A DNA stretch of 34,854 nucleotides from an uncultured candidate division Zixibacteria bacterium. GTDB taxonomy: Bacteria > Zixibacteria > MSB-5A5 > UBA10806. Shown one piece after another: positions 19,896 to 34,854 of the stretch (its first letter is position 1; every line of letters begins with the position of its first letter). Location: the NCBI GenBank assembly GCA_963817915.1, contig CAWFQL010000021.1:1-34854 (forward strand). The letters run 5' to 3'. The notes under the pieces were generated by a model that was not told the DNA's origin, searched no databases, and saw nothing but the letters and a program-made list of their open reading frames with translations. The translations under genes and the position numbers were made by a program.

Positions 19896-20981
19896 ATGAA
19901 AAAACTCGGAATCGTCTTTTGGCTTTTGGCGGCCTCGGCATTGCTGATCACAAGCTGCCAAAAACAGCCCAATATTATGGAGCCGCAAGATTCAACTAAT
20001 CCGAATCTCAATGGTTCTTATTCGATTACTTTGCCGCCGGGAGCAACCCTGCAGTCGGCAACCCTATCTGTTTTTGTTAATTCACCAAGCGGCGCGACTG
20101 TCAATGTCCACAGGATTACACAGCCCTGGGATGAAATGGTCGTGACGTGGAACAGCTTCGGAGGCAGTTTCGACCCCGCCATCGTGGGATCGTTTATGCC
20201 GAATGCCGCAGATTGGCGTTCTGTAGACGTAACATCGCTGGTGCAGGGCTGGCTCAACGGCTCTTACCCCGATTATGGCTTCCTGCTCGAACAGGGTCAG
20301 ACCGAATATACCAATTATTATAGCAGCGATTTTCCGGTAGTCAGCATGAGACCGAAACTTGAAATCTGTTACAATATGCCGAGCGGCACTGTTTGTGAAA
20401 CATTCCAGAGAGGGCTTTTAGGAACGGTTAGCGATACTTATATCTGGCAATTGAATCCTGATGAGAATTTCGGAGCGTCTGAATTATTCTACACCGGGCT
20501 TGTAAGCGGTTTTGAGAAAATGTCCCTTCTCAAGTTCGAATATACTCCTCCTCCGCAGGAAGGCTGCACCCGTACAATCGGTTATTGGAAGACCCATGCC
20601 GGTTTCGGCAAAGGCAATCAGGGAGATATGGTAACAGCATTGTTGCCAGTTTGGCTTGGAACGGCTGGCGGAACAAAGAGCATTAATGTAACCACAGCCC
20701 TGATCGCTTATAACTTACTTACTCAGAAAGTCTATGGCGATCCGTCTAATGGCATCACCAAACTTTATTCCCAGCTATTGGGCGCTAAGCTAAATATTGC
20801 CAGTGGCACCGGCCACTCGGATATCGATGTCGTCATTGCGGCGGCCGATCCGTTCCTGGCAACTCATAATTGGAATGATTGGGCTGGATTGAGCCCGGCT
20901 GACCAGCAGATGGTGTTGCTATGGCAGAATCAGCTCGATTCCTACAATAACGGCTTAGTCGGCCCTGTTCACTGCCAATAG
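19896..20981 (+). CDS. Lipoprotein with DNRLRE-like domain(s)
   Basis: Lipobox LLITSC; LPPGATLQSATLSV...VHRITQPWDE..VTWN...DVTSLVQGW..G...YGFLL...RPKLEI; C-terminal GCTRTIGYWKTH domain. Confidence 0.8.
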   Translation: MKKLGIVFWLLAASALLITSCQKQPNIMEPQDSTNPNLNGSYSITLPPGATLQSATLSVFVNSPSGATVNVHRITQPWDEMVVTWNSFGGSFDPAIVGSFMPNAADWRSVDVTSLVQGWLNGSYPDYGFLLEQGQTEYTNYYSSDFPVVSMRPKLEICYNMPSGTVCETFQRGLLGTVSDTYIWQLNPDENFGASELFYTGLVSGFEKMSLLKFEYTPPPQEGCTRTIGYWKTHAGFGKGNQGDMVTALLPVWLGTAGGTKSINVTTALIAYNLLTQKVYGDPSNGITKLYSQLLGAKLNIASGTGHSDIDVVIAAADPFLATHNWNDWAGLSPADQQMVLLWQNQLDSYNNGLVGPVHCQ

Positions 20982-21005
20982 ATATCGTGAACTAGATTAA
21001 GTCAA

Positions 21006-21035
21006 AAAAGGCGGCTCCATCCGGTGCCGCCTTTT
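21006..21035. terminator. Intrinsic terminator, probably bidirectional
   Basis: AAAAGGCGGC-N10-GCCGCCTTTT between convergent genes. Confidence 0.8.
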
Positions 21036-21036
21036 G

Positions 21037-21100
21037 TTTTCCTGCGAGTCACGGCTTGCCGTGACCGCATCTTGGCAGTATTCGCAATCAGGGACTATTC
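21037..21100 (+). repeat. Direct repeat copy 2 of the element at 17659
   Basis: Aligns with 17659-17722; hairpin GTCACGGC-tt-GCCGTGAC. Confidence 0.85.
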
Positions 21101-21103
21101 GCA

Positions 21104-21131
21104 GTGGTGGCAGGTCTCCGCACCTGCCACC
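21104..21131 (+). repeat. REP hairpin downstream of the RAYT gene, inverted relative to the upstream one
   Basis: GTG-GTGGCAGGT-CTCCGC-ACCTGCCAC. Same head and loop as the minus-strand hairpin at 21653-21679. Confidence 0.85.
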
Positions 21132-21172
21132 AATAGATTAGTTATAGTACATTACAGTCACCAGCGGTTCAA

Positions 21173-21637
21173 TCAAGACCGAGAGGATCTACCCTTCTTG
21201 ATAATAGGCTGCGCTGGAATAGGGCCAGTCGTGGCTTTTTCAACAAATCTTGCCTTGATCGGATTATAATGAATATAATTCAATTTCGTTGAATACAATT
21301 TCAGTGAATATATTTTTACGTCATCAAAACGTTCTTGCCATAATTTACAAATCTTCTTATTGTGAAGTTGCCAGTATTCGGACGCTACTCTCTTCTTGAA
21401 ATCCCTCATGAAATCGCTAACGTCTTTGTTATCGGGGATTGTCATTAATAGGTGAATATGATTTGGCATAACAACAAAACCATGCAATTGAATTGAATCT
21501 CTGTTTCGGTAATATTCCAATTTGCTTAATACTATATTATATTCGTCTGCCGAATTAAATCTATATATTCTCTTGTCTGTGGAGGATGTTATAAAGAATG
21601 TGCCGGATTTATTTAGGGATCTATGTCTTAAAGGCAT
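21173..21637 (-). mobile_element. REP-associated tyrosine transposase (RAYT, Y1 HUH family); apparent indel near 21232
   Basis: TFFITSST, LHGFVVMPNHIHLL (HUH), LWQERFDD, YIHYNP (catalytic Tyr). The expected WPYSSAAYY tail lies in an adjacent frame. Confidence 0.9.
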
Positions 21638-21644
21638 TATTCGA

Positions 21645-23204
21645 TCAGCTTATCGTCGGGTGCGGAGACCCGACGACACGGGAAATAGCCTTAATATACG
21701 GATTGATGTCATACTTAACAGCATCGTACATACCAGGCCGCGGAAGGCCAGCATCGTCAACTATCCCTCTGGGACCATGTCCTGCGGATTCATACTTCCA
21801 AATTAGGATGCTTTTTGGTTGATAGCACAGACCCATAAAAGCAAAGCACCTCATCTCGGCGCGCGTTGGTTTGCGGCGAGGCTCTTCCGAGCATGTATCC
21901 TCCGGCACGGGATCGTTCGGGTAGCAGTACCAAAATTGAGGCGTATAAACCCATGATATTGAAGTATCAGATGCAATGGCCGCCCTGATGGAATCGCAGG
22001 GCTCAGCTATATACGCATTGAGCGCCTTCTGAAAAATATCCCAATTCCCGGCATCATATCCGGTATAACTGGCGTTCAACCATAAGGGATAAAGATAAAC
22101 CCAAAGCGTCTTAGGATTGCTTATCTTCAAAAACTCCCGGAAGCCATCGGCCCAATGGCCGTACTGTAAGGTCGGGGAATAAGAGTTAAGCCAGGTGTTC
22201 GCCTCGACCGGGTGCGTCCAGACTGCGGTAGTGTCTTTGACCAACTTATTGATATAAGCGAACGGCCGGAAATTGCCCGCCGCCTGCGTGTCCTTCAGAA
22301 ACCAGCCGCGAATCTTGTTCGCATAGCCCTGACGGCCAGTGGCGCGCTTAATATCAACATCATAAAAACTGCTGTCAATCAACCGGGCCCCATACTGGTC
22401 GCAAATCTTGATATAATCTACATAAACCGTGCATGCCCCGGCAACCTGAAATTGGAAACGGACTGTGCCTCCTGAATTATCATACAGGATATTTCTTTCA
22501 GTAAAAAACAAGCTATCAAACGTATTCGAGGCCTGCCAATCGTTTCGCAATTGCAAATGGGCCGGTTGAAAGACGGAGCCGCCCCGGGGCAGGTCCCTGA
22601 CATATAACGTATCCACAAACCGAACAGAATCGGAGGCGTAATCAAGATTAATCGCTCTAAAGATACCGACGATGGCGTTGGTATCGGTGACTCCGGGGCT
22701 TATGGCCATACTCAGGTATGGGGAATACTGCAATTGTCCAAACCAGTCCCATTTATTGGGAAGGCCGAGCTTGAGATTGGAGAGCATCAGGCCTGAGCCG
22801 GAGTAGGCGAAATAGGCGGTGTCGTTGCGGCTCACCTGCCAGCCCTCGGCGGCGTTTGTGAACTTGGTAACATAGTACTGGCCGCTGTCCGGCTCCGGAT
22901 CGGTCAGGTAATAAGTAGTGCGGGCATATTGCACCTGAGGATCGCCATCGCCGTCCGTAGTTGCCCAGGGATAAGGAAAAAGACTGTCCGCATAAAAATC
23001 ATTGATCGTATTCGAGCTGAACCCCCCCGACATATATTGATTGAATCCCAGTTCCTGACGCATCGAATCCCGGCGAGCCGAAGTATAAAAATCGTCATTG
23101 GCCCAGATCGAGGAATAAGTCCCGAAGGGCATCACATGCTCAGGCACAAGCTGTGAATAACAAACAACAGGCAAAAGCAAAACTAATAAAACTATCCATT
23201 TCAT
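21645..23204 (-). CDS. Secreted protein of unknown function, apparently C-terminally truncated by the REP/RAYT segment at about 21686
   Basis: RBS AGGAGG and signal peptide. Paralog of 25291..26508 (GFNQ..SG, ACT.YVDY...DQYG, GW.LKDT...N.RP.A.I, WVY.YP). The last residues ISRVVGSPHPTIS are read from REP A. Confidence 0.75.
   Translation of the reverse strand: MKWIVLLVLLLPVVCYSQLVPEHVMPFGTYSSIWANDDFYTSARRDSMRQELGFNQYMSGGFSSNTINDFYADSLFPYPWATTDGDGDPQVQYARTTYYLTDPEPDSGQYYVTKFTNAAEGWQVSRNDTAYFAYSGSGLMLSNLKLGLPNKWDWFGQLQYSPYLSMAISPGVTDTNAIVGIFRAINLDYASDSVRFVDTLYVRDLPRGGSVFQPAHLQLRNDWQASNTFDSLFFTERNILYDNSGGTVRFQFQVAGACTVYVDYIKICDQYGARLIDSSFYDVDIKRATGRQGYANKIRGWFLKDTQAAGNFRPFAYINKLVKDTTAVWTHPVEANTWLNSYSPTLQYGHWADGFREFLKISNPKTLWVYLYPLWLNASYTGYDAGNWDIFQKALNAYIAEPCDSIRAAIASDTSISWVYTPQFWYCYPNDPVPEDTCSEEPRRKPTRAEMRCFAFMGLCYQPKSILIWKYESAGHGPRGIVDDAGLPRPGMYDAVKYDINPYIKAISRVVGSPHPTIS
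21653..21686 (-). repeat. REP hairpin A (copy 1), 15 nt upstream of the RAYT start
   Basis: Minus strand ATTTCCC-GTG-TCGTCGGGT-CTCCGC-ACCCGACGA. Confidence 0.9.
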
Positions 23205-23220
23205 CTCATCCTCCTTGATA

Positions 23221-24936
23221 TTACCGCATTAAGATAATTTTCTTAGGCGTCGACGAAGAATCAATGCCCCATTGTGTTATCTTCGCAAAGTACATCCCCG
23301 ACGACAAATCGGAGCCGGCGTCATCTTTACCGTTCCAAATTACTCTATGGACGCCAACATCCTTTCTCTCTCTCTGAAGTGTTCTAACTTTGCGGCCCAT
23401 GATATCGTAAATCGTTATCTCGATCTCAGCCGGTATAGGCCCTAAGTTGGCAACGGAGTAAACCAGAGTAGTCGCGGAGTTAAAGGGATTGGGATAGTTG
23501 CTCGAAATCACGGATACCCTCGGAAGCGGCGTTCCCGCTTCATCCCAGACGTCGGTTAAGTCCATTCTGAGTTCGGGAGAGTATTCCGACTGATTCCCCT
23601 GGTTATCTATGGCGGCTATCCGGTAGTAGTAAGTCCGGCCAATGATGATATTAGCATCGGCATAAAAAGAAGTTTCGGGCTCGGCAATAAGATTGGCCGG
23701 GCTGGGAATAAAGCCTGCCAATGTATCACGATGCAGAAGATAACAGTTGAAATCGGCCTCGGTGTTCATTCTCCATGAAAGGAAGATGGTATCAGAGACA
23801 CCGCTCCCTGAAATGCTGTCGGGCGGCTCAGGCGGGAGATCGAGATATTCATAGAAAGCGCCATTAGTGCCGCCGTAGGCTCCGATATCGGAGCGGCTGC
23901 CGTCGTAGTCGAGTATATTTGGGTCTCCGGCGTCAATCAAAGGTGAAAAAGCCTGAAGGCGGAAGTCGCCGGAATCGGCAGAAATATACATGGGATCACT
24001 ATCTAAATTGCCGATCGTATCCCCGGTACTATCATAAAAATTGGCGTAGTTTTCCCAGAAGTGATTATATTGAACATACTCAGGTCCTTCAATTTCTAAT
24101 CCCATTCCATAACGACAGCCCATGACAGAGTTGTTGATAGCGCTTTGTCCAGTCCAGACCAAAATTCCGAATGTCCAGCTTCCATTATATCTGTTCTTAA
24201 TGACGTTGTTTTGTAGAATATTGGCTGTTGATGATATGCCGGTAGCCGGTGATATTATTATATTGTTCCTTATGACCCGCCTGTCGCTTGTGGTTGAACC
24301 CCCAATGCCAGGGCCGGAACCTTGCATAAAAATGATGTTTCTTTCCACAACCGCCGAATCGGAGATGAATTCTATACCACCCAAGCCATACATGTTTCTA
24401 AAAAGATTATTCGCGATATAGATATCGGAGTAGGAGAGGTAGATATGAATACCGGTATCAAGGGTATCAAATATACAATTCGTTATTTCAGTATGACCGC
24501 CCGTAGCGTCTATACCGAATGCGCTTCGACGAAAACGGCAATCTCGTATGGTCACCCCGGCATATGGCATCCCAAAAAGAGCGTGGTAGCCACCCAGATG
24601 CCTGAAGGTGATGCCTTCAACGAAGCAGCCGTAATCTATGGTCAATACCGGCGTATGAAGCGAGTCCCCATACCAGAAAGTGGAGTCCATCCCCATGCCG
24701 ATGATGGCTATTGAGTCATCTTCGCCCGTCTGGACCGTTTCCAGCCAGTCCCCCGAGCTTATAAAGACCGTATCATGCTGGGTTGTGGCGTTTATCGCCT
24801 TTTGTATACTATCCGCGGCTGTTTCCCAGTTGGTATAAGGGAAAGTATTAGACCCCGTATGGCTGGCGTAGTGGTAGTCCGCCAGCGCGGGGAGGGAGAG
24901 GGCTATTGTGATTAAGATTATATAGATTTTTCTCAT
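23221..24936 (-). CDS. Secreted right-handed beta-helix protein with FN3-like and T9SS-type-A/FlgD-Ig C-terminal domains (paralog 1)
   Basis: MRKIYIILITIALSLPALA|DYHYASHTGSNTFPY.WETAADSIQKAINA; N/I-rich beta-helix repeats; LQAFSPLIDAGDP..LD.DGSRSDIGAYGG; YYYRIAAIDNQGNQS; SNYPNPFNS. Confidence 0.88.
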   Translation of the reverse strand: MRKIYIILITIALSLPALADYHYASHTGSNTFPYTNWETAADSIQKAINATTQHDTVFISSGDWLETVQTGEDDSIAIIGMGMDSTFWYGDSLHTPVLTIDYGCFVEGITFRHLGGYHALFGMPYAGVTIRDCRFRRSAFGIDATGGHTEITNCIFDTLDTGIHIYLSYSDIYIANNLFRNMYGLGGIEFISDSAVVERNIIFMQGSGPGIGGSTTSDRRVIRNNIIISPATGISSTANILQNNVIKNRYNGSWTFGILVWTGQSAINNSVMGCRYGMGLEIEGPEYVQYNHFWENYANFYDSTGDTIGNLDSDPMYISADSGDFRLQAFSPLIDAGDPNILDYDGSRSDIGAYGGTNGAFYEYLDLPPEPPDSISGSGVSDTIFLSWRMNTEADFNCYLLHRDTLAGFIPSPANLIAEPETSFYADANIIIGRTYYYRIAAIDNQGNQSEYSPELRMDLTDVWDEAGTPLPRVSVISSNYPNPFNSATTLVYSVANLGPIPAEIEITIYDIMGRKVRTLQRERKDVGVHRVIWNGKDDAGSDLSSGMYFAKITQWGIDSSSTPKKIILMR

Positions 24937-24973
24937 ACACACCTGCCTGAAACAAGTCACTAATTATACCTAT

Positions 24974-25002
24974 AAAATAATGCTCGTGGATGATTTTGTC
25001 AA
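24974..25002 (-). promoter_or_regulatory. Sigma70-type promoter of the left module
   Basis: Minus strand TTGACA-N17-TATTTT, the same pattern as the groESL promoter. Confidence 0.7.
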
Positions 25003-25028
25003 GAAATATTTTAAAAAGCAGCGGCTAA

Positions 25029-25061
25029 TCGTCGGGTACGGCGACCCGACGACACACAACA
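25029..25061 (-). repeat. REP hairpin B (copy 1)
   Basis: Minus strand TGTTGT-GTG-TCGTCGGGT-CGCCGT-ACCCGACGA; identical copy at 28347-28379. Confidence 0.9.
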
Positions 25062-25291
25062 ATGAAATCGCTAACGTCTTTGTTATCGGGGATTGTCATT
25101 AATAGGTGAATATGATTTGGCATAACAACAAAACCATGCAATTGAATTGAATCTCTGTTTCGGTAATATTCCAATTTGCTTAATACTATATTATATTCGT
25201 CTGCCGAATTAAATCTATATATTCTCTTGTCTGTGGAGGATGTTATAAAGAATGTGCCGGATTTATTTAGGGATCTATGTCTTAAAGGCAT
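25062..25291 (-). pseudogene. 5' fragment of the RAYT gene; keeps the HUH motif but lacks the catalytic Tyr region
   Basis: 25062-25340 matches 21408-21686 base for base by eye (279 bp). The ORF runs into REP B after ...VSDF. Confidence 0.9.
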
Positions 25292-26508
25292 TATTCGATC
25301 AGCTTATCGTCGGGTGCGGAGACCCGACGACACGGGAAATCGAAGGGATAGATATAAACCCACGGCTCCTTTGTCCTGCTCTGATACATGTACTCCCTGA
25401 AATATACGGGCGGCCCGGAAAACCAGGCATGCCCCTTTACTGGATGCTGGTTCCAGCCATGCTCCACCATCGACACCTGTATCAGGCTGTCAATAAAAGC
25501 CTGAGGGCGATAATTCTGTGGGAACGGCGTGTCCTTCAATTGCCAGCCCAGTAGCCTCCCTTCCCAGGCGTTCACGCCCGCGCTGTCCTTGATGGCACTT
25601 GCTACGCTTTCAAGTTTAAATTCACTCATTAAATCCCGCCCATATTGATCAAATAGTTCCAGATAATCGACGTACAACGTGCAGGCATCTAATGAATAAA
25701 CTCCGATCACCACATCTCGCGTCGATGCAACGCCGTAATTTTCGACAATAAATGCACTATCCCCTGAGACATCATGAAGGAACATTATGGTATCTTGGAG
25801 GACATACGGTACTTCTGCGGCCTTCAAGGTATCGAGGAATATTCTATCCCAACAACAATCAAATATTCTTAAATTACAACAGGCGGTATCCGGATTTATC
25901 CTTCTCCGCAGAATATAGACAAACGCCAAAGGTGTCGATGGTGCAAGTGTATCCGATGAGAGGTTCCTCCCTATCTTTAATCGCGGATAATATGCCAATT
26001 GAGTCCCATCCCAGAAATGCTTATTGGGCAAACTCAGCGTCCAGTTCAAAATCATGGTGTCAAGCGTGACGCAATGTTCGCTTTCAAGGCAGGGGTATCT
26101 CCAGTATTCGGGATAATCCGGATTAATATCGCCGAAGCCCTGGCACCGGTAACAATCATTAATGGCTCCTTTTTCCGGATGGCAAATATAATAAGTCGAT
26201 AGCGAATATTTCTGGGCCGGCTGTATATGCCAGGTATTCCCTTCATCCGTCGTGTATCCTCCGGTATTCACGTATATGTGATGTGTGTCGGCCCACCGGA
26301 TCGCACTTGGCAGATCGAATCCCGAGACCCATTGGTTGAACCCGAATATATTGTGGAGCGTATCCAATACCCCGTCTCTGAAGTACGAGGCTGAAGTGCC
26401 ATTCTCCGAGGAATAAGAACCCCAAGGCAATTCGTCTGACGGTATTATTGACTGCCCAAAACAAATAACCGGAATCAAGACCAACATCAATATTATTCTA
26501 TTCGACAT
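25291..26508 (-). CDS. Secreted protein of unknown function, truncated by the REP/RAYT segment at about 25340
   Basis: RBS GGAGG and signal peptide. Paralog of 21645..23204 but stops just after WVYIYPFD. The tail FPCRRVSAPDDKLIE is read from REP A. Confidence 0.75.
   Translation of the reverse strand: MSNRIILMLVLIPVICFGQSIIPSDELPWGSYSSENGTSASYFRDGVLDTLHNIFGFNQWVSGFDLPSAIRWADTHHIYVNTGGYTTDEGNTWHIQPAQKYSLSTYYICHPEKGAINDCYRCQGFGDINPDYPEYWRYPCLESEHCVTLDTMILNWTLSLPNKHFWDGTQLAYYPRLKIGRNLSSDTLAPSTPLAFVYILRRRINPDTACCNLRIFDCCWDRIFLDTLKAAEVPYVLQDTIMFLHDVSGDSAFIVENYGVASTRDVVIGVYSLDACTLYVDYLELFDQYGRDLMSEFKLESVASAIKDSAGVNAWEGRLLGWQLKDTPFPQNYRPQAFIDSLIQVSMVEHGWNQHPVKGHAWFSGPPVYFREYMYQSRTKEPWVYIYPFDFPCRRVSAPDDKLIE
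25307..25340 (-). repeat. REP hairpin A (copy 2)
   Basis: Identical to 21653-21686. Confidence 0.9.
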
Positions 26509-26517
26509 TACCGCCTC

Positions 26518-28254
26518 CTATCTCATTAAAACTATCTTTCTACTTTTGGCCAGAGCCTCGACGCCCCATTGCGTGATACTGGCAAAATATACTCCCGACG
26601 GACAGTCATGGCCGGAATCATCCCGGCCGTCCCAGATAATCCTGTAAATGCCGATTTCTTTCCTCTCATTTATAAGAGTCTTAACTCGCCGCCCCAAGAT
26701 GTCATAAATATCGATATTGATCTGGGCCGGTATCGGCCCTAAGTTGGCTACACTGTAAATTATAGTCGTGCTGCTGTTGAAAGGGTTGGGATAATTACTC
26801 TCGATGGCTGTCATCCTCGGAGTCTCGGCACCGAAATTATCCCCGATTCCCACAAGGGTAAGATTAAGCTCCTCCGAATATGCCGAAACGTTTCCCTGGT
26901 TATCTAGCGCAGATATCCGATAATAGCAATTCCTCGAAGGCGGCAGGCTGGCATCCGCGTATAATGACGATTCGGCATCGGCAATCATATTGAATTCCGA
27001 TGGTTCAAAAACAGATATCGTGTCGCGATAAATATGATAAAGGGCGAAGTCGGCCTCGGTATTCATGTGCCACACAATAAACGCCGTATCGGCAATGATC
27101 AGGCCGGACAGGCTATCGGGGATATGCGGCGGAAGATCGCGATACTCATAGGATGAGCCATGAGGCCCCCCATAAGCCCCGATGTCGGACCTTGAACCAT
27201 CAACATCTAAGACATTCGGGTCCCCGGCATTTATCAAAGGAGAGTAGGCCTGGAGACGGAAGTCAAGAGAATCCGGATCGGCATACATCGGGTCGACGAA
27301 GATATTGCCTATAGAATCATAATCTTCGCTCCAGGAAACGACGTCGAAGTCATTCCTCCAGAAATCATTATAATTTGCCGTCAAGCCTGGAAGACCGTCG
27401 GAAATCACCAGCCCCCAATTCCAATTAACAACAATATTATTGTAAATAGTGTCCCGCAATTGAGCCGCTAGCCCGAAAGCTATGGACGGCAATTTCCTGC
27501 CTAATATGACGGTATTATTATTCCTTACGCTTGGACAGTTGCGCCCACCGGCTATAATTCCGTCGGCTCTTGGCCCTGCCACCACTACATTGTTATAGAC
27601 GCCGCTGTAAAATACGCCGCTTGCATAAATATTATGGAGATTGCCTAAGCCTGTGACAATATTGTTGTTGACGACCACATAGTTCGCTGTCATGTCGATT
27701 CCATAAAAATCCCAAAACTTCCTGATAAAATTATTGGAAATGAATATCGTGTCCGCATAGCCACTAATTCCTCTACCGCAAGAATCGAAAACACAATGGT
27801 TTATAGAAGAAGTTTGGCCACCATTAAAAAATACTGCTTCTCTGCATTTGTTGAAACTACAGTTCGAAATACTGCCGACATTTATATATATGCCGCAATC
27901 TCTCGGCATATCCCTAAAAGTGATATTTTCAACTGAATACCCGCGGCCCAACCTGAATATATACCAGTCAGCCTGAATCGAGTCCCAGTGGCAGAAGGTG
28001 CTGTCAGTCCCCATCCCGATTATGCGCAGGTTAGTGGCTGCCACGGCGGTTACGCATTCAAACCAATGGCCGCTGCCGATGTAGGCTGTATCGCCCGGGG
28101 TGGTGGCGTTTATCGCTTTTTGTATGCTGTCCGCGGCCGTCTCCCAAGTAGTATAGGGGAAGGTATTAGACCCCGTATGGCTGGCGTAGTGGTAGTCCGC
28201 CAGAGCGGGGAGGGAGAGGGCTAATGTGATTAAGATTATATAGATTTTTCTCAT
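26518..28254 (-). CDS. Secreted beta-helix/FN3/T9SS-type CTD protein (paralog 2)
   Basis: Same leader and C-terminal motifs as paralog 1 (DPMY..D...RLQAYSPLINAGDP, SNYPNPFNS, YSVANLGPIPA); the central beta-helix is divergent. Confidence 0.88.
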   Translation of the reverse strand: MRKIYIILITLALSLPALADYHYASHTGSNTFPYTTWETAADSIQKAINATTPGDTAYIGSGHWFECVTAVAATNLRIIGMGTDSTFCHWDSIQADWYIFRLGRGYSVENITFRDMPRDCGIYINVGSISNCSFNKCREAVFFNGGQTSSINHCVFDSCGRGISGYADTIFISNNFIRKFWDFYGIDMTANYVVVNNNIVTGLGNLHNIYASGVFYSGVYNNVVVAGPRADGIIAGGRNCPSVRNNNTVILGRKLPSIAFGLAAQLRDTIYNNIVVNWNWGLVISDGLPGLTANYNDFWRNDFDVVSWSEDYDSIGNIFVDPMYADPDSLDFRLQAYSPLINAGDPNVLDVDGSRSDIGAYGGPHGSSYEYRDLPPHIPDSLSGLIIADTAFIVWHMNTEADFALYHIYRDTISVFEPSEFNMIADAESSLYADASLPPSRNCYYRISALDNQGNVSAYSEELNLTLVGIGDNFGAETPRMTAIESNYPNPFNSSTTIIYSVANLGPIPAQINIDIYDILGRRVKTLINERKEIGIYRIIWDGRDDSGHDCPSGVYFASITQWGVEALAKSRKIVLMR

Positions 28255-28291
28255 GCACACCTGCCTGAAATAAGTCACTAATTATACCTAT

Positions 28292-28320
28292 AAAATAATG
28301 CTCGTAGAGGATTTTGTCAA
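28292..28320 (-). promoter_or_regulatory. Sigma70-type promoter of the right module
   Basis: Minus strand TTGACA-N17-TATTTT; two spacer differences from the copy at 24974. Confidence 0.7.
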
Positions 28321-28346
28321 GAAATATTTTAAAAAGCAGCGGCTAA

Positions 28347-28379
28347 TCGTCGGGTACGGCGACCCGACGACACACAACA
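28347..28379 (-). repeat. REP hairpin B (copy 2)
   Basis: Identical to 25029-25061. Confidence 0.9.
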
Positions 28380-28384
28380 GACTT

Positions 28385-28415
28385 AAAAAATGCCCCGCTG
28401 ATAACAGCGGGGCAT
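28385..28415 (-). terminator. Intrinsic terminator of the 207-aa gene
   Basis: TGCCCCGCTG-ataa-CAGCGGGGCA stem, followed on the minus strand by a T run. Confidence 0.85.
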
Positions 28416-28441
28416 ACTATCGTAGCTATGATTTTTTATTG

Positions 28442-29065
28442 TTACTTGTGCTCTGTGCTCTTAATCATCATCAAGACATTCTGCAGCGAATTGGTAACAT
28501 TAGAGAGTACTTTGCTGTATCGTTTGAGCAGCTCCGAATACTGCCAGCGCATCGAAAGCGCCTTCTCCGGGAAACCAAACAGGTCGAGCAATGTCTTCTT
28601 GTAGATTTCATCAATATACTGTAACACATAGAACGGATACTCGGGGATATTCTGGTCGGCTACCTGACCCTTGGAAATTCTGTCGCGATATATCTCGATC
28701 TTTTCCAATATAACAGTCCCGAAACACCAGGGAGTCATTATCGATGATAAATTCTTGGAGTCTGAATAATATAAGTATAAATGTTTTAATGTCTGCTCTA
28801 TTATAATCTTCTTGGCGCGATAGAATGCCAGGCTCTCTTCGAATTCGTTTGATGTCGATTTGATCTTTTCATCGAGATCCTTGATCTGACGAATACATTT
28901 GATCTCGGTATTCTCAAGAAAACGGTAATAGGTATCGAAGTAGACCTTTATATTTTCACTGGAGGTGTAGATGTACCAGCCAGACTTGTCCTGGCCAACC
29001 TTGGGGTTATTAACAAATTTTAAAGTCTTTTCTGAAAATCCTCTCTCTAAACCATTAGATGTCAT
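28442..29065 (-). CDS. Hypothetical cytoplasmic helical protein (207 aa)
   Basis: Intact ORF with RBS GGGGGA, its own promoter candidate and terminator. No family recognised. Confidence 0.75.
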   Translation of the reverse strand: MTSNGLERGFSEKTLKFVNNPKVGQDKSGWYIYTSSENIKVYFDTYYRFLENTEIKCIRQIKDLDEKIKSTSNEFEESLAFYRAKKIIIEQTLKHLYLYYSDSKNLSSIMTPWCFGTVILEKIEIYRDRISKGQVADQNIPEYPFYVLQYIDEIYKKTLLDLFGFPEKALSMRWQYSELLKRYSKVLSNVTNSLQNVLMMIKSTEHK

Positions 29066-31008: not shown

Positions 31009-31198
31009 AATATCTATTTCGGACAAAAAACCTGTTTTGTCAAGCCAACGACGAATTTTTGTTTCAAATGGCTTAACATTTTTGGTTTGATAACCAAAAA
31101 GGCAGGCGTGCTCCTTATTCATATTGACAATCTTCGGCAATCCATTATCTTTTCAACGGGACTTTAATGAAAACGTAATCTCTCCGGGTGGTGCAATA

Positions 31199-32950
31199 TT
31201 GAAAAAAGCTTTCGTTTTTTTAATTGTCATAGCCCTCTCCCTCCCCGCCCTGGCGGACTACCACTATGCCAGCCATACGGGGTCTAATACCTTCCCCTAT
31301 ACCTCCTGGGAAACCGCCGCGGACAGCATACAGAAGGCGATAAATGCCGGTACCGCCGGAGATACTATCTATGTGGGAGCGGGAACATGGAATGCTCCGG
31401 CATATATCCTAAATGACGATTTGGCAATGATTGGGATTAGCATGGATTCAACCACCCTGATTCGCACCGGGCCTCGAGCCCAAATTGTATTTCCGGGAAA
31501 TCGGACACTCTTAGAAAAATTTACATTTACAGGTGCGAGCGTAGCCGTATATCCAATTTATAAGACCGACATAGTCATTCAGAACTGTACATTTAGAAAT
31601 CTTGGCGGAGGAATTGTTGGGGTTTTTACTGGGAAAATAGAAAACAATCTGTTCTTTAATAACGGGGACGCAATCGATGCCACATTTGACGCCTGCAGCC
31701 TTTTAGTCAAGAACAACACAATTACGGGTTGCACGGAGGCTGGTATTATGGCCAACGATGGCAGTTGGACGGTTGTCAATAATCTGTTTCACCATAACGA
31801 TGCGCCCAACTTTGTTTTGATGTTAAATTTCCATCGGGCGCAGGACACGGCTTATGTAGCCAACAACCTATTCTATCGGAATCAGGCAAATCAGGGGCAT
31901 TTAGGACCGTCGAATCTTGCTATTGTAGGCTCGACCACAGTTAACAACACCTTTATAGGACCAGAAGTATTTACCTGGCAACGAGCCATCGCTTTCTTTG
32001 ACCACAGCAACAGGCCGGCATCCGGTTCGGTCAATAATGCCTTCAGTGATTATTATGCCGCTTTCTCCGCCGAAGGCGATCCCTCTCAGATATATGTCTC
32101 CTACAATGATTTCTGGGATGTAAATCGCGTCGGATTGGGGGGTATTGTGCACTTATTGGAAGGGAACCTCTATTCGAGCCCAATGTTTGCCGACAGTACC
32201 GACTTCTATCTGCAAGCCTTCTCGCCCCTAATCGATGCCGGCGATCCCAATATATTGGATGTTGACGGCACCAGGAGCGATATCGGGTATTTGGGAGGGC
32301 CGGGGGGATGTTCTTATGTCTATCTCGATCTGGCTCCCAAGATTCCGGACTCATTGACCGTCCGTGTCGATTCCGGGACAATAGTTATGAATTGGCATTA
32401 CAACACGGAAGCGGATTTCAATCGTTATCAGATATTTAGGGATTCGGTTTCGGGGTTCACGCCTCTTCGGTAATTAATATGATAGCGGAACCGGAGACAT
32501 CATATTATGAAGACAATACTATCACACCGGGTATATCGTATTATTATCGTTTTACGGCAGTGGATAATCAGCATAACGTCTCAGATTATTCCGAAGAACT
32601 TGCGGTAATAGCCACATCGATACCCAGCGATTCCCACGGTAATCTTCCAAAATACAAAGTGATAACGAGCGCCTATCCAAACCCGTTTAATTCCAATGTT
32701 ACGATAGTCTATTCCGCATCGAATGTTGGATGATCAGCCACGAGAGATGCAATTGGTCTTGTATGATATTCAGGGCCGGATTGTGAGGACGTTGGTTAAT
32801 GAGCGGAAGCCCATGGGCACATATCGGGCGGTTTGGGATGGCCGAGATGATGCGGGCTCGCCCGTAGCCTCTGGAATTTATATGGCGAGGCTATATCAGG
32901 AGGGCTGCCCGGGCGGCGATTTTTCGGTCAAGATCACATTGGTGAAATGA
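31199..32950 (+). CDS. Secreted beta-helix/FN3/T9SS-type CTD protein (paralog 3; apparent indels near 32465 and 32730)
   Basis: TTG start after GGTGG; ALSLPALA|DYHYASHTGSNTFPY; ORF pieces 31124-32473, 32479-32733 and 32723-32950 join into the family architecture. TTGACA-N16-TATCTT at 31124-31151. Confidence 0.82.
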
Positions 32951-32957
32951 GGAAAAT

Positions 32958-34734
32958 ATGAAAAAAATCCTAATAATCTTAATCACGATAGCCTTCTCCC
33001 TCCCCGTCCTGGCGGACTACCACTTGCCAGCCACACGGGGTCTAATACCTTCCCCTATGCCAGCTGGGAAACCGCCGCGGACAGTATACAAAAGGCGATC
33101 AACGCCGGTACCGCCGGAGATACTATCTTTGTGGGCAGCGGGGTCTGGGAAGATGCGCCATACACGCTGTGGAATGGCCTTTCATTGATTGGGATGGGGA
33201 TTGATTCCACAACAATCAGGCTCGGAAATCACAGCGGCTGGATCCATATGATTGTGACACAAAGCAATGTGTTTATTAAAAACTTTACTTTTGACGGTAC
33301 AAATATGAATTACGCGAACGATGCTATTTTACCAGTATTACACGCAACAAACATTAGCATTGTTGACAATAGATTCACTAGGTTATGGATTGGCATAAAT
33401 GAGGGGTCCAATACGGGACAAATCGTCAACAATATTTTCATTAATTGCCAAACGGCCATCGACGCTTCCTTTGATGCCTGTAGCCTTTTGGTCAAAAATA
33501 ACACGATTACTGGCTGCACTGAACGCGGGATTGATGCCTACGGCGGTAATTGGACCATTACCAACAACCTTTTTTACAATAATCCGGGGTCATTAATGCT
33601 AGGGCTCTTTTTCTACAGGGTCAGCGATACCAGCTATGTAGCCAATAACCTTTTTTACAACAATCAATGGAACCCTAATCTTCAATCCCACGTGATTGCT
33701 CTCTATGGAGAAGGCGTTGTCAACAACACGTTTATCGGCCCTGATAATTTGGGTGATCAACGAGCGAGTTTCATAAATGCCCTCATTGTCAATGATGTCC
33801 TATGGTCGAGGAACAATGTCTTTGCCCATTTTTATACTGCTTTTGAGCTATACAGTTATCCGTTTTATACGCAATTAGATATTTCTTATACGGATATCTG
33901 GCGCGTGAGCTATAATGATATAGGCTACGGAGGGGCGCATTATTTGGAAGGCAATCTTTTCGCCGATCCCATGTTTGCCGACAGTACAAATTTCTACCTG
34001 CAAGCTTTCTCGCCGCTGATAGATGCGGGTGATCCCAGCATATTGGATGTAGATGGCACTCGCTCGGATATCGGTTGTTATGGTGGGCCGGGTGGATGTT
34101 CTTATGTCTATCTCGATTTGGCCCCGATGATACCGGACTCGTTAAGCGCCAGGGTTGATTCAAATATCATCATTATGAATTGGCATTACAACACGGAAGC
34201 GGATTTCAATTGTTATCAGATATTTCGGGATTCGGTTTCGGGGTTCACGCCTTTGGACTTCAATATGATAGCGGAGCCCGAGACCTCTTATTTTGAGGAT
34301 AACAATATCACACCGGGGATCTCATATTTCTATCGTCTAACTGCAGTAGATAATCAGCATAATATCTCTGATTATTCGGATGAAATAGCTGTAGTACCCA
34401 CGTCCACGCCGGGAGATGGGGAGAATCACATGCCGAGATATTCGGTAATCTCTGGCGCTTATCCGAATCCGTTTAATTCTAACGTGACCATAGTATATTC
34501 CGCATCGAATGTTGGTGATCAGTTATGAGATAAAATTGGTCTTGTATGATATTCAGGGTCGAGTTGTGAGAACACTGGTCAACGAGCGAAAACCAATGGG
34601 AACATATCGAGCAATTTGGGATGGCCGAAGACGACACGGGATGGCCTGTGGCCTCGGGAGTTTATATGGCGAGGCTTTATCAAGAGGGGAGCGCCGGAGG
34701 AGATTTCCCGATCAAAATAACGTTGGTGAAATGA
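32958..34734 (+). CDS. Secreted beta-helix/FN3/T9SS-type CTD protein (paralog 4; apparent indels near 33025, 34525 and 34630)
   Basis: MKKILIILITIAFSLPVLADYH; body 33131-34528 shares FDACSLLVKNNTITGCTE and the whole C-terminal half with paralog 3; ends ...PIKITLVK*. Confidence 0.82.
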
Positions 34735-34741
34735 GGGAAAT

Positions 34742-34854
34742 ATGAGAAAAATCTATATAATCTTAATCACAATAGCCCTCTCCCTCCCCGCCCTGGCGGA
34801 TTACCACTATGCCAGCCATACAGGGTCTAATACCTTCCCCTACACCTCGTGGGA
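34742..34854 (+). CDS. 5' end of paralog 5 (runs off the window)
   Basis: MRKIYIILITIALSLPALADYHYASHTGSNTFPYTSW; the first 50 nt are identical to paralog 1. Confidence 0.85.
   Translation, partial: MRKIYIILITIALSLPALADYHYASHTGSNTFPYTSW

Follow-up and report, generated by a model that had tools for sequence, protein, structure and literature searches.

We analyzed a stretch of 34,854 nt (positions 1 to 34,854 of contig CAWFQL010000021.1, assembly GCA_963817915.1, from an uncultured candidate division Zixibacteria bacterium; hereafter the window), and in particular the part in which two tandem gene cassettes, each composed of an A gene and a B gene, are interspersed with repetitive extragenic palindromes (REPs). 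The locus is a REPtron, that is, a Y1 HUH gene for a REP-associated tyrosine transposase (RAYT) situated between inverted REPs, at the 3' end of an old tandem cassette pair. Read along the minus strand, to which the window coordinates below refer unless otherwise noted, the order of features is a terminator; REP-B, a promoter-like site, A1 and the truncated gene B1'; REP-A and a RAYT fragment (RAYT'); REP-B, a promoter-like site, A2 and the truncated gene B2'; and, finally, REP-A, the RAYT gene and an inverted REP.

The first cassette lies downstream of an intrinsic-terminator-like hairpin with a T-tract (28390..28415; an 11-pair stem followed by TTTTTAAGTC) that belongs to the gene at 28442..29065. 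The tail of this terminator, ...AAGTC, directly adjoins the terminus of the first copy of REP-B (28346..28379), which consists of a TGTTGT flank (28379..28374), a GTG head (28373..28371) and the hairpin TCGTCGGGT-CGCCGT-ACCCGACGA. On its 3' side is a promoter-like site, TTGACA-17-TATTTT (28292..28320; 10 of 12 matches), that falls within a 282-nt block common to A1 and A2 (block X; REP-B, promoter and the 5' end of the A gene). (Note that the number of promoter-like sites in the region is not above that in shuffled sequences.) A1 (26518..28278) specifies a 586-aa secreted right-handed beta-helix protein with a FlgD-Ig/type IX secretion system (T9SS) C-terminal sorting domain. It is followed by the 405-aa open reading frame (ORF) of B1' (25291..26508), which carries its own sequence up to D390 (GAT, 25341..25339), the final 15 codons and the stop codon being supplied by REP-A and the RAYT leader. 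This first copy of REP-A (25306..25340) has an ATTTCCC flank, a GTG head (25333..25331) and the hairpin TCGTCGGGT-CTCCGC-ACCCGACGA. Next comes RAYT' (25062..25291), comprising the first 77 codons of the RAYT gene, from the ATG at 25291 to ...GATTTCAT at 25062, and 100% identical to the full gene; it keeps the HUH motif, has lost the region of the catalytic Tyr, and scores 52 bits against NF047646 over profile positions 4-76 of 146.

The second copy of REP-B (25028..25061; TGTTGT flank 25061..25056, GTG head 25055..25053, then the hairpin) abuts the end of RAYT' and is followed by a second promoter-like site (24974..25002), by A2 (23221..24960), a 579-aa paralog of A1 with right-handed beta-helix, FlgD-Ig and T9SS sorting domains, and by the 519-aa ORF of B2' (21645..23204), whose own sequence extends up to I507 (ATT, 21686..21684) and whose final 12 codons and stop codon are supplied by REP-A. 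This second copy of REP-A (21652..21686; ATTTCCC flank, loop CTCCGC) is the left REP of the REPtron. The 154-aa ORF of RAYT itself (21173..21637) contains the HIH (HUH) and YIHYNP (Tyr) motifs, and beyond it, on the plus strand, lies the inverted right REP (21098..21130; TTCGCA flank, GTG head 21104..21106, hairpin GTGGCAGGT-CTCCGC-ACCTGCCAC). RAYT is thus bracketed by inverted GTG-headed hairpins with the common loop CTCCGC; the right REP has the same loop and head as REP-A, and its stem differs by paired changes in both arms. Both copies of REP-B (25028-25061 and 28346-28379) correspond to half of a REPIN, an inverted REP doublet, in that the start of the linker (TAGCCG..) is kept and the inverted partner hairpin is absent; the promoter-like TTGACA-17-TATTTT comes right after this half-REPIN.

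Profile searches place the RAYT ORF among REP-associated tyrosine transposases: it scores 103.4 bits against NF047646 (cut-off 80; profile positions 4-140 of 146) and 39.8 bits against Pfam Y1_Tnp (PF01797; cut-off 23). The genome contains one full and one partial copy of this gene, as well as at least four additional, more distant RAYT loci. Dispersed REPs include 27 of the TCGTCGGGT type, the RAYT's own, and 13 of the GTGGCAGGT type, its partner, often paired as REPIN doublets. The head of these REPs is GTG (in 125 of 140 hairpins) and not the GTAG of groups 2 and 3 of the literature, which occurs in none of the hairpins listed, although no search aimed at GTAG was made. Nor does the layout match that of IS200/IS605, since the hairpins are inverted and the whole element is not multi-copy, and a Y2 Rep-like transposase of the IS91/ISCR kind is not present in the element, the 154-aa protein scoring as REP_Tyr_transpos/Y1_Tnp only.

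An earlier note on this DNA had placed three breakpoints 6-7 nt 5' of the GTG head of a REP, with no visible target duplication, and we found all three. On the minus strand, the joints to REP-A read ...AAGGCT|ATTTCCC-GTG-hairpin at 21686 and ...CCCTTCG|ATTTCCC-GTG-hairpin at 25340, and the third, at 25062|25061, reads ...GATTTCAT|TGTTGT-GTG-hairpin where the complete RAYT gene instead continues as GATTTCAT-GAGG. A block of 279 nt (block Y; REP-A and the 5' end of RAYT) is present twice, at 25340..25062 and 21686..21408, with no mismatch in 279 positions; on the left it starts with the A of ATTTCCC (7 nt from the GTG), and on the right it borders directly on the T that opens TGTTGT (6 nt from the GTG of REP-B). 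A fourth break is evident at 28379/28380, where the homology between the regions upstream of A1 and A2 begins exactly at TGTTGT (28379 and 25061). Judged by identity, then, the breaks lie 7 nt from the GTG at REP-A and 6 nt from it at REP-B. At the joints in the window we see no target duplication, only a T overlap of 0-2 nt. On the 3' side of each joint the REP and the sequence that follows it are undisturbed; on the 5' side stands an arbitrary partner, namely B2, B1, an internal part of RAYT or a terminator tail. The hairpins themselves have 9-bp stems and 6-nt loops, with DNA folding energies of −9.9, −10.2 and −12.7 kcal/mol and z-scores of −2.5 to −5.4.

One claim of the earlier note did not survive, namely that all of the junctions can be written AT|T. 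Written in this way the break is 5 nt from the GTG at REP-A and 6 nt from it at REP-B, and the boundary at 28379 is TC|T; we therefore rejected AT|T as a common cleavage motif. Alignment to full-length homologs placed the cuts in the B genes at D390 and I507; the codons concerned, Ile507 (ATT) and Asp390 (GAT), fit a target-derived AT, and fit equally a 1-nt T overlap with an element starting at −6. The site in RAYT at 25062-25075 (…ATTTCAT|GAG…) resembles the REP flank and head at position 14901 of contig C9 (…ATTTCAC-GTG); the break in RAYT is not at the equivalent of −6, and the likeness is possibly due to chance in T-rich sequence.

The position of these breaks coincides with the terminus of the REP unit as it is defined across the genome. 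A search with the hairpin pattern N4-C(G/A)GGT-N6-ACC(C/T)G-N4 returned 280 strand-wise matches, or 140 hairpins, 125 of them with GTG 5' of the stem, and collapsing copies with identical flanks left 119 unique GTG-headed REPs. Among these, T is found at −6 in 75 and at −5 in 73, against a background T content of 28%; there is an A/T bias at −7 (43 A, 48 T), and the information content is close to zero from −8 outward. In the RAYT's own REP family (n = 24), T occupies −6 in 20 and −5 in 19, C occupies −3 in 16 and −1 in 15, and there is no conservation from −7 outward. Moreover, the similarity among four REPIN copies on contig C6 ends precisely at the limits of TTGCWY-GTG ... CAC-TGGAAA. The flank conservation and the edges of the C6 REPINs together indicate that the REP unit starts at −6, where the breaks in the window fall. 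Collecting REP copies into a logo of their 5' flanks, as the earlier note had proposed, thus returned a common boundary, and that boundary is the genome-wide left terminus of the REP unit.

At two of the joints the REP terminus interrupts a protein-coding gene. B1 follows its family through WVYIYPFD (Asp is found at the aligned YPID position in five of seven homologs), and B2 follows it through NPYIKAI, where Ile is present in all seven homologs and is succeeded by D and about 110-160 more residues; B2 instead reads SRVVGSPHPTIS, which derives from the REP. The B2 homologs in the protein database, seven proteins of 609-680 aa, one of them from a candidate division Zixibacteria metagenome-assembled genome (MAG), all extend beyond YIKAID, so the long-form members of the family do not naturally end at these positions, and matches to B2 in the genomes of relatives end at query residues 508-510 of 519. 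The two paralogs are cut at non-equivalent codons, D390 in B1 and I507 in B2, some 120 aligned residues apart, as had been noticed before. No C-terminal remainder of the B family was found elsewhere by tblastn with the seven homologs against the 22 contigs of the bin, which is 93.9% complete; matches occurred only at the two B loci, stopping at 21675-21684 and 25300-25345. The missing remainders argue that the joints are one-sided and are not simple insertions. B1 retains the long-form motif LWxYxYP beyond the point at which short paralogs in other genomes end, and lacks a stop codon of its own, indicating that the joint lies inside the B1 frame; the joint may have cost B1 a few residues, or about 220-290 of them. 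(Profile searches assigned B to no Pfam or NCBIfam family.) ORFs of at least 150 codons that read at least 38 nt into a REP occur at only two of 125 REPs, the two copies of REP-A in the window, which suggests that these joints are unusual, probably recent, and disruptive. REPs in this genome are often flush against gene ends: long ORFs (105-527 codons) stop inside, or at most 5 nt from, the 6-nt REP flank at C12:387663, C9:12177, C3:17938, C16:403109, C11:81895 and C9:260617.

Joints of the same kind occur on other contigs. Comparing the genome with itself gave 204 alignments (length ≥100 nt, identity ≥85%), from which we derived 352 unique internal repeat boundaries; 13 of these have their first REP-side base at −7..−4 relative to a GTG head, whereas in 2000 trials of random placement the mean was 0.057 and the maximum 2. 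In all, 52 boundaries fall within −60..+90 of a head; the 13 among them lie in a 4-nt window, and about five lie at offsets +24 to +37, 3' of the hairpins. One-sided breaks are found at C3 21445 (...AAAAAT|TAAAAA-GTG) and C6 93902 (...GCCTTT|GCTC-GTG), and tandem-duplication joints at C3 73460/73707 (123-nt units; ...GAATAT|TAAAA-GTG), C10 90005 (310 nt; ...GCTTT|CCAA-GTG) and C7 50067 (876 nt; ...GAATT|TCGCG-GTG). The last of these (C7:48600-51500) encompasses a whole gene of 233 aa together with a REPIN, with 94% identity between the copies and a joint 5-6 nt before the GTG. In the six boundaries compared in detail, those in the window included, the last shared flank base is T in every case and no longer motif is apparent; the polarity is likewise the same in every compared joint, the REP side being intact and the variable partner lying 5'.

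Comparison of the two cassettes, and of their relatives, suggests how the locus may have come about. Nucleotide identity between the cassettes is 93%, 97% and 88% in the first three 90-nt windows, drops to 28-69% through A and B, and returns to 100% in the REP-A/RAYT block; the first ~60 codons of A1 and A2 are 88-97% identical in nucleotides, and over the whole proteins A1 and A2 are 50% and B1 and B2 28% identical. In relatives from four genera (G018, G009, G003 and G016) the order A-B-A-B is kept and the genes are tightly packed, and none of the four loci examined has a RAYT match or a GTG-headed hairpin between the cassettes, which indicates that the inter-cassette DNA in the window is derived. 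Block X contains 17 mismatches in 282 nt, four of them in the first 125 non-coding nt, and block Y none in 279 (Fisher test on the whole blocks, p = 1.2e-5; for the non-coding part alone about 0.009 by hand estimate). That X is much older than Y is only moderately supported by this comparison (4/125 non-coding mismatches versus 0/279), which nonetheless suggests that the REP-B terminus was used twice, unless gene conversion keeps the RAYT block identical. The earlier note's proposal of separate events sharing one element end holds for the shared end; the number of independent terminus joints in the window we put at three to four, and not firmly at three, depending on whether the block with REP-B and the promoter was copied separately. 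The ancestor may have been a single operon, A1-B1-A2-B2, preceded by REP-B and the promoter and followed by a REPtron that adjoined a truncated B2. The left part of the REPtron would then have been copied and joined to B1 at D390, after which a joint with the REP-B terminus before A2 would have interrupted the copied RAYT at codon 77. Two routes are conceivable: the whole element may have inserted into B1, with a later one-sided deletion running leftward from REP-B, or two strand transfers may have succeeded one another within a single replication-coupled event.

Other features of the window and of the bin may be mentioned here. Three further tandem A paralogs lie on the plus strand at 31124-34854 (A3, 31199-32947; A4, 33026-34709; A5, from 34742 off the contig), of which A3 and A4 match A2 piecewise in different frames. 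Across all five A paralogs nucleotide identity is 88-97% over the first ~115-180 coding nt, with 35-50% protein identity beyond; from the alignments it looks as if the signal peptide and N-terminus of A are under concerted evolution. In G003 and G016 the downstream B gene encodes a fusion protein of 1119-1178 aa that carries additional beta-helix and T9SS domains, and within each genome the two A copies show near identity over long stretches. Convergent with the REPtron, at 19896-20981 on the plus strand, lies the gene for a DNRLRE-domain protein (NF033679, 104 bits). The bin also carries strain-variant or overlapping contigs (C20, C16, C14, C13 and C1 against C21, C12 and C3), with 94% identity between C20:2128-10918 and C21:1-8764, 96.6% between C16:448841-454093 and C21:1-5229, and 97.9% between C14 and C12, such that the start of the window is represented twice; none of these variant contigs covers the window between 21 and 28 kb.

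The polarity of the joints is consistent with what has been described for REP transposases. TnpA-REP cleaves 5' or 3' of a REP within a dinucleotide and forms a Tyr-5' phosphate link (PMC8266576 and PMC3333891, in the portions of text available), and the 3'-OH of an added oligonucleotide was fused in vitro to the 5' end of the cleaved REP substrate (PMC8266576, same portion). Indeed, strand transfer, priming from the freed 3'-OH and 3'-end degradation have been proposed to underlie the variation and tandem amplification of bacterial interspersed mosaic elements (available text of PMC3333891). Because this chemistry leaves the REP side linked through its 5' phosphate, the polarity seen in every joint is the one expected. 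These considerations raise the possibility, which we regard as evenly balanced, that the joints were made by a RAYT that nicked DNA at the REP terminus and rejoined it to a foreign 3'-OH, giving rise to one-ended copies and deletions. In such a mechanism, the RAYT, or a paralog acting in trans, would nick single-stranded DNA at the left terminus of a REP, the exact phosphodiester presumably lying at the TT at −6/−5, and would remain covalently attached to the 5' phosphate on the REP side until a foreign 3'-OH end, usually ending in T, resolved the link. The REP and everything 3' of it would stay intact, and the 5' partner would be arbitrary. The one-ended copies so produced would be REP-A with 264 nt of RAYT, and REP-B with the promoter and the 5' end of A; the DNA lost between them would be the C-terminus of B2, the end of B1, and the 3' half of the copied RAYT with its right REP. 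The earlier note had read the locus as the footprint of one-ended HUH strand transfer or adjacent deletion; the shared end, the one-sidedness and the fit with known chemistry support this in part, with a RAYT as the candidate agent.

Several observations weigh against the involvement of a RAYT or against one-ended events. Any insertion of a REP or a REPtron makes a terminus joint, so the joints B1|REP-A and B2|REP-A are by themselves no proof of one-ended events; RAYT'|REP-B makes the stronger case. The joints have no single register or flank motif, for with a fixed break at −7|−6 the flanks in the window end in A, A, T and C. Next to the two closest RAYT homologs, which come from other genera and are 53% and 51% identical, the REPs lack the TT at −6/−5, have other flanks and form head-to-head doublets, and we rejected conservation of the TT terminus across genera; an E. 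coli-type guide rule, if carried over to the tetranucleotide 5' of the stem so that its last two bases pair with the site, would point to CA instead of TT. Near 21231/21230, after the catalytic Tyr, the reading frame of RAYT shifts, and the DWPYSSAAYY tail expected from homologs (conserved tail DWPYSSAAYYQEG, window 21173-21240) is readable in another frame; RAYT homologs of 160-185 aa align to residues 1-137/142 only. The shift is due to recent pseudogenization or else to an error in the sequence of the bin, and the present copy of RAYT may therefore be inactive. Two of the four relatives examined (G003 and G016) have short upstream B paralogs, of 346 and 269 aa, that end 12-30 aligned residues before the B1 cut, so the loss from B1 may be small. 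The 876-nt duplication on C7 is untidy, since the REP of its first copy has a different 5' flank and a degenerate head, and we therefore do not count it as a clean analogue even though its joint is at the terminus. Lastly, searches for a close strain found none: B homologs in the protein database are at most 48% identical, and none of 42 pattern matches from a metagenome scan with B1 was confirmed as a relative. A look-up of sequencing runs for 21000-28500 likewise listed none.

Whole REPtrons or REPINs might instead have inserted once in B2 and once in B1 and have been trimmed later by RAYT-independent deletions, in which case the common boundary is just the element's own end. The left REP terminus is fixed genome-wide, so any insertion would make such a joint; the region is decaying, with frame changes in A3, A4 and RAYT; and the upstream B paralogs are short in two of the four relatives with no REP nearby. 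We nevertheless hold this account to be unlikely, because the deletion behind RAYT' has its endpoint, to the single nucleotide, at the very REP-B terminus from which the A1/A2 upstream homology runs; a random deletion would reach that point, by our estimate, once in some hundreds of cases. Moreover, no remainder of B2 is seen beyond the right REP of the REPtron, which calls for another deletion next to a terminus, and five further loci have terminus joints, including tandem duplications that insertion cannot explain. A further account is RAYT-independent illegitimate recombination, in which a hairpin stalls replication and the nascent strand switches template with the help of T-rich microhomology (0-2 nt). 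It is known that palindromes stimulate slippage, the stems are stable as DNA (−9.9 to −12.7 kcal/mol), T overlaps of 0-2 nt occur at several joints, and there are tandem duplications at REPs. Stalling, however, predicts breaks at or inside the stem and on either side of it, whereas the breaks are confined to the head side, lie 9-10 nt from the stem in the 5' direction and fall on a conserved TT, with few boundaries 3' of the hairpins (13 at −7..−4 versus about five at +24 to +37), and we consider this explanation quite unlikely.

The layout of the locus, which can be written X-W-Y | X-W-Y, also brings to mind an ancient tandem duplication of the unit from REP-B to the 5' end of RAYT, with gene conversion having kept the REP blocks alike and only one old joint per REP. 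Conversion appears to be active in the A family, given the near identity of the A copies in G003 and G016, and the five A paralogs in the window show 88-97% nucleotide identity in their first ~150 coding nt, versus 35-50% protein identity elsewhere. Yet B1 and B2 meet REP-A at non-equivalent codons, which one duplication cannot yield; the perfect identity of Y (0/279), next to B proteins that are 28% identical, would require conversion to have stopped exactly at the REP terminus, with no homology beyond; and the four relatives have neither REP nor RAYT between their cassettes. Such a history thus seems very unlikely. Least probable, to the point of being hard to credit, is that the joints arose in assembly, through the mis-threading of repeats or chimeric joins in a strain-mixed metagenome bin. 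The bin does contain strain-variant contigs (C20/C21, 94%; C16/C21, 96.6%), and an exact repeat of 279 nt is longer than most short reads, but mis-threading would reorder segments and could not create junction sequences, each of which should exist in the reads; an alternative threading makes A2-B2-Y a cycle; and the same type of boundary recurs on five other contigs.

Were joining by a RAYT to be the correct explanation, REP/RAYT systems would, beyond multiplying themselves, truncate genes, duplicate genes and move promoters. We further advance, as a tentative idea that is more doubtful than not, that REP termini may act as fixed origins for one-ended, RAYT-driven copying of the DNA on their 3' side, be it promoters, whole genes or multi-kilobase cassettes. 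If so, REP/RAYT would constitute an engine of gene duplication and promoter delivery, the arrival of REP-B and its promoter before A2 would have split an ancestral A-B-A-B operon into two transcription units, and the RAYT fragment would be a by-product of one-ended copying acting on the RAYT's own gene. A testable prediction, for a RAYT outside the proteobacteria, is that the enzyme nicks at the TT six bases before the GTG head and joins the REP to foreign 3' ends. The mechanisms of REP dissemination have been called poorly understood (PMC8266576, in the text available), and in the portion of the literature covered here direct in vivo traces of RAYT action are few, three excision reads from P. 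fluorescens being such a trace (PMC3116915, likewise in part). Our literature search, the coverage of which mostly excludes subscription journals and extends to parts of the texts, returned no paper describing joints at REP termini that are kilobase-scale, gene-truncating and self-truncating. What this genome offers is a recent event (0/279 mismatches), a terminus placed to ±1 nt, a consistent polarity and several independent joints on other contigs.

The locus is most readily compared with the REPtrons of E. coli, Stenotrophomonas and Marinomonas (PMC3333891 and PMC8266576, as far as their available text goes), which have in common with it a single-copy Y1 HUH gene between inverted REPs, many dispersed REPs with a conserved short head 5' of the stem, and, in vitro, the joining of any 3'-OH to the REP side, the polarity seen here. 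Those REPtrons, as described in the same portions of text, have a GTAG head and a CT flank dinucleotide, whereas the REPs studied here have GTG (often CnC-GTG) and TT at −6/−5; the host here, a Zixibacteria-like MAG, contains several RAYT paralogs and several REP families, and the joints, of which those portions of text give no example, are on the scale of kilobases and cut protein genes and the RAYT gene itself. In the REPIN-RAYT system of Pseudomonas fluorescens SBW25 (PMC3116915, available text), inverted REP doublets are likewise the replicative unit and the RAYT is single-copy, and ordered clusters of tandem REPINs with flank resemble the 123-, 310- and 876-nt units found here. In contrast to what is described there, the co-duplicated flank in the present genome reaches whole genes, one copy event carried part of the RAYT gene, and the boundary is placed to ±1 nt at the TT terminus. 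IS200/IS605 elements such as IS608 and ISDra2 (PMC3333891 and PMC8266576, in part) are similar in their Y1 HUH enzymes, subterminal hairpins, single-strand chemistry and lack of target duplication, and have a short conserved, possibly target-derived, sequence 5' of the left end to which the conserved T at −6 could correspond. Compared with those elements, as far as their descriptions go, the present one has inverted hairpins, is not multi-copy as a whole, has no evident specific tetra- or pentanucleotide target, and lacks TnpB. Similar in outcome is the one-ended transposition of IS91/ISCR elements, in which one end is fixed, the other is variable, and adjacent host DNA of variable length is co-mobilized; the enzymes responsible are larger Y2 Rep-like transposases that act at ori and ter ends, unlike the RAYT considered here. 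Finally, tandem chromosomal duplications in enterobacteria also have their join points at REPs and are ascribed to REP-REP recombination, whereas in the joints reported here the partner of the REP terminus is non-REP DNA.

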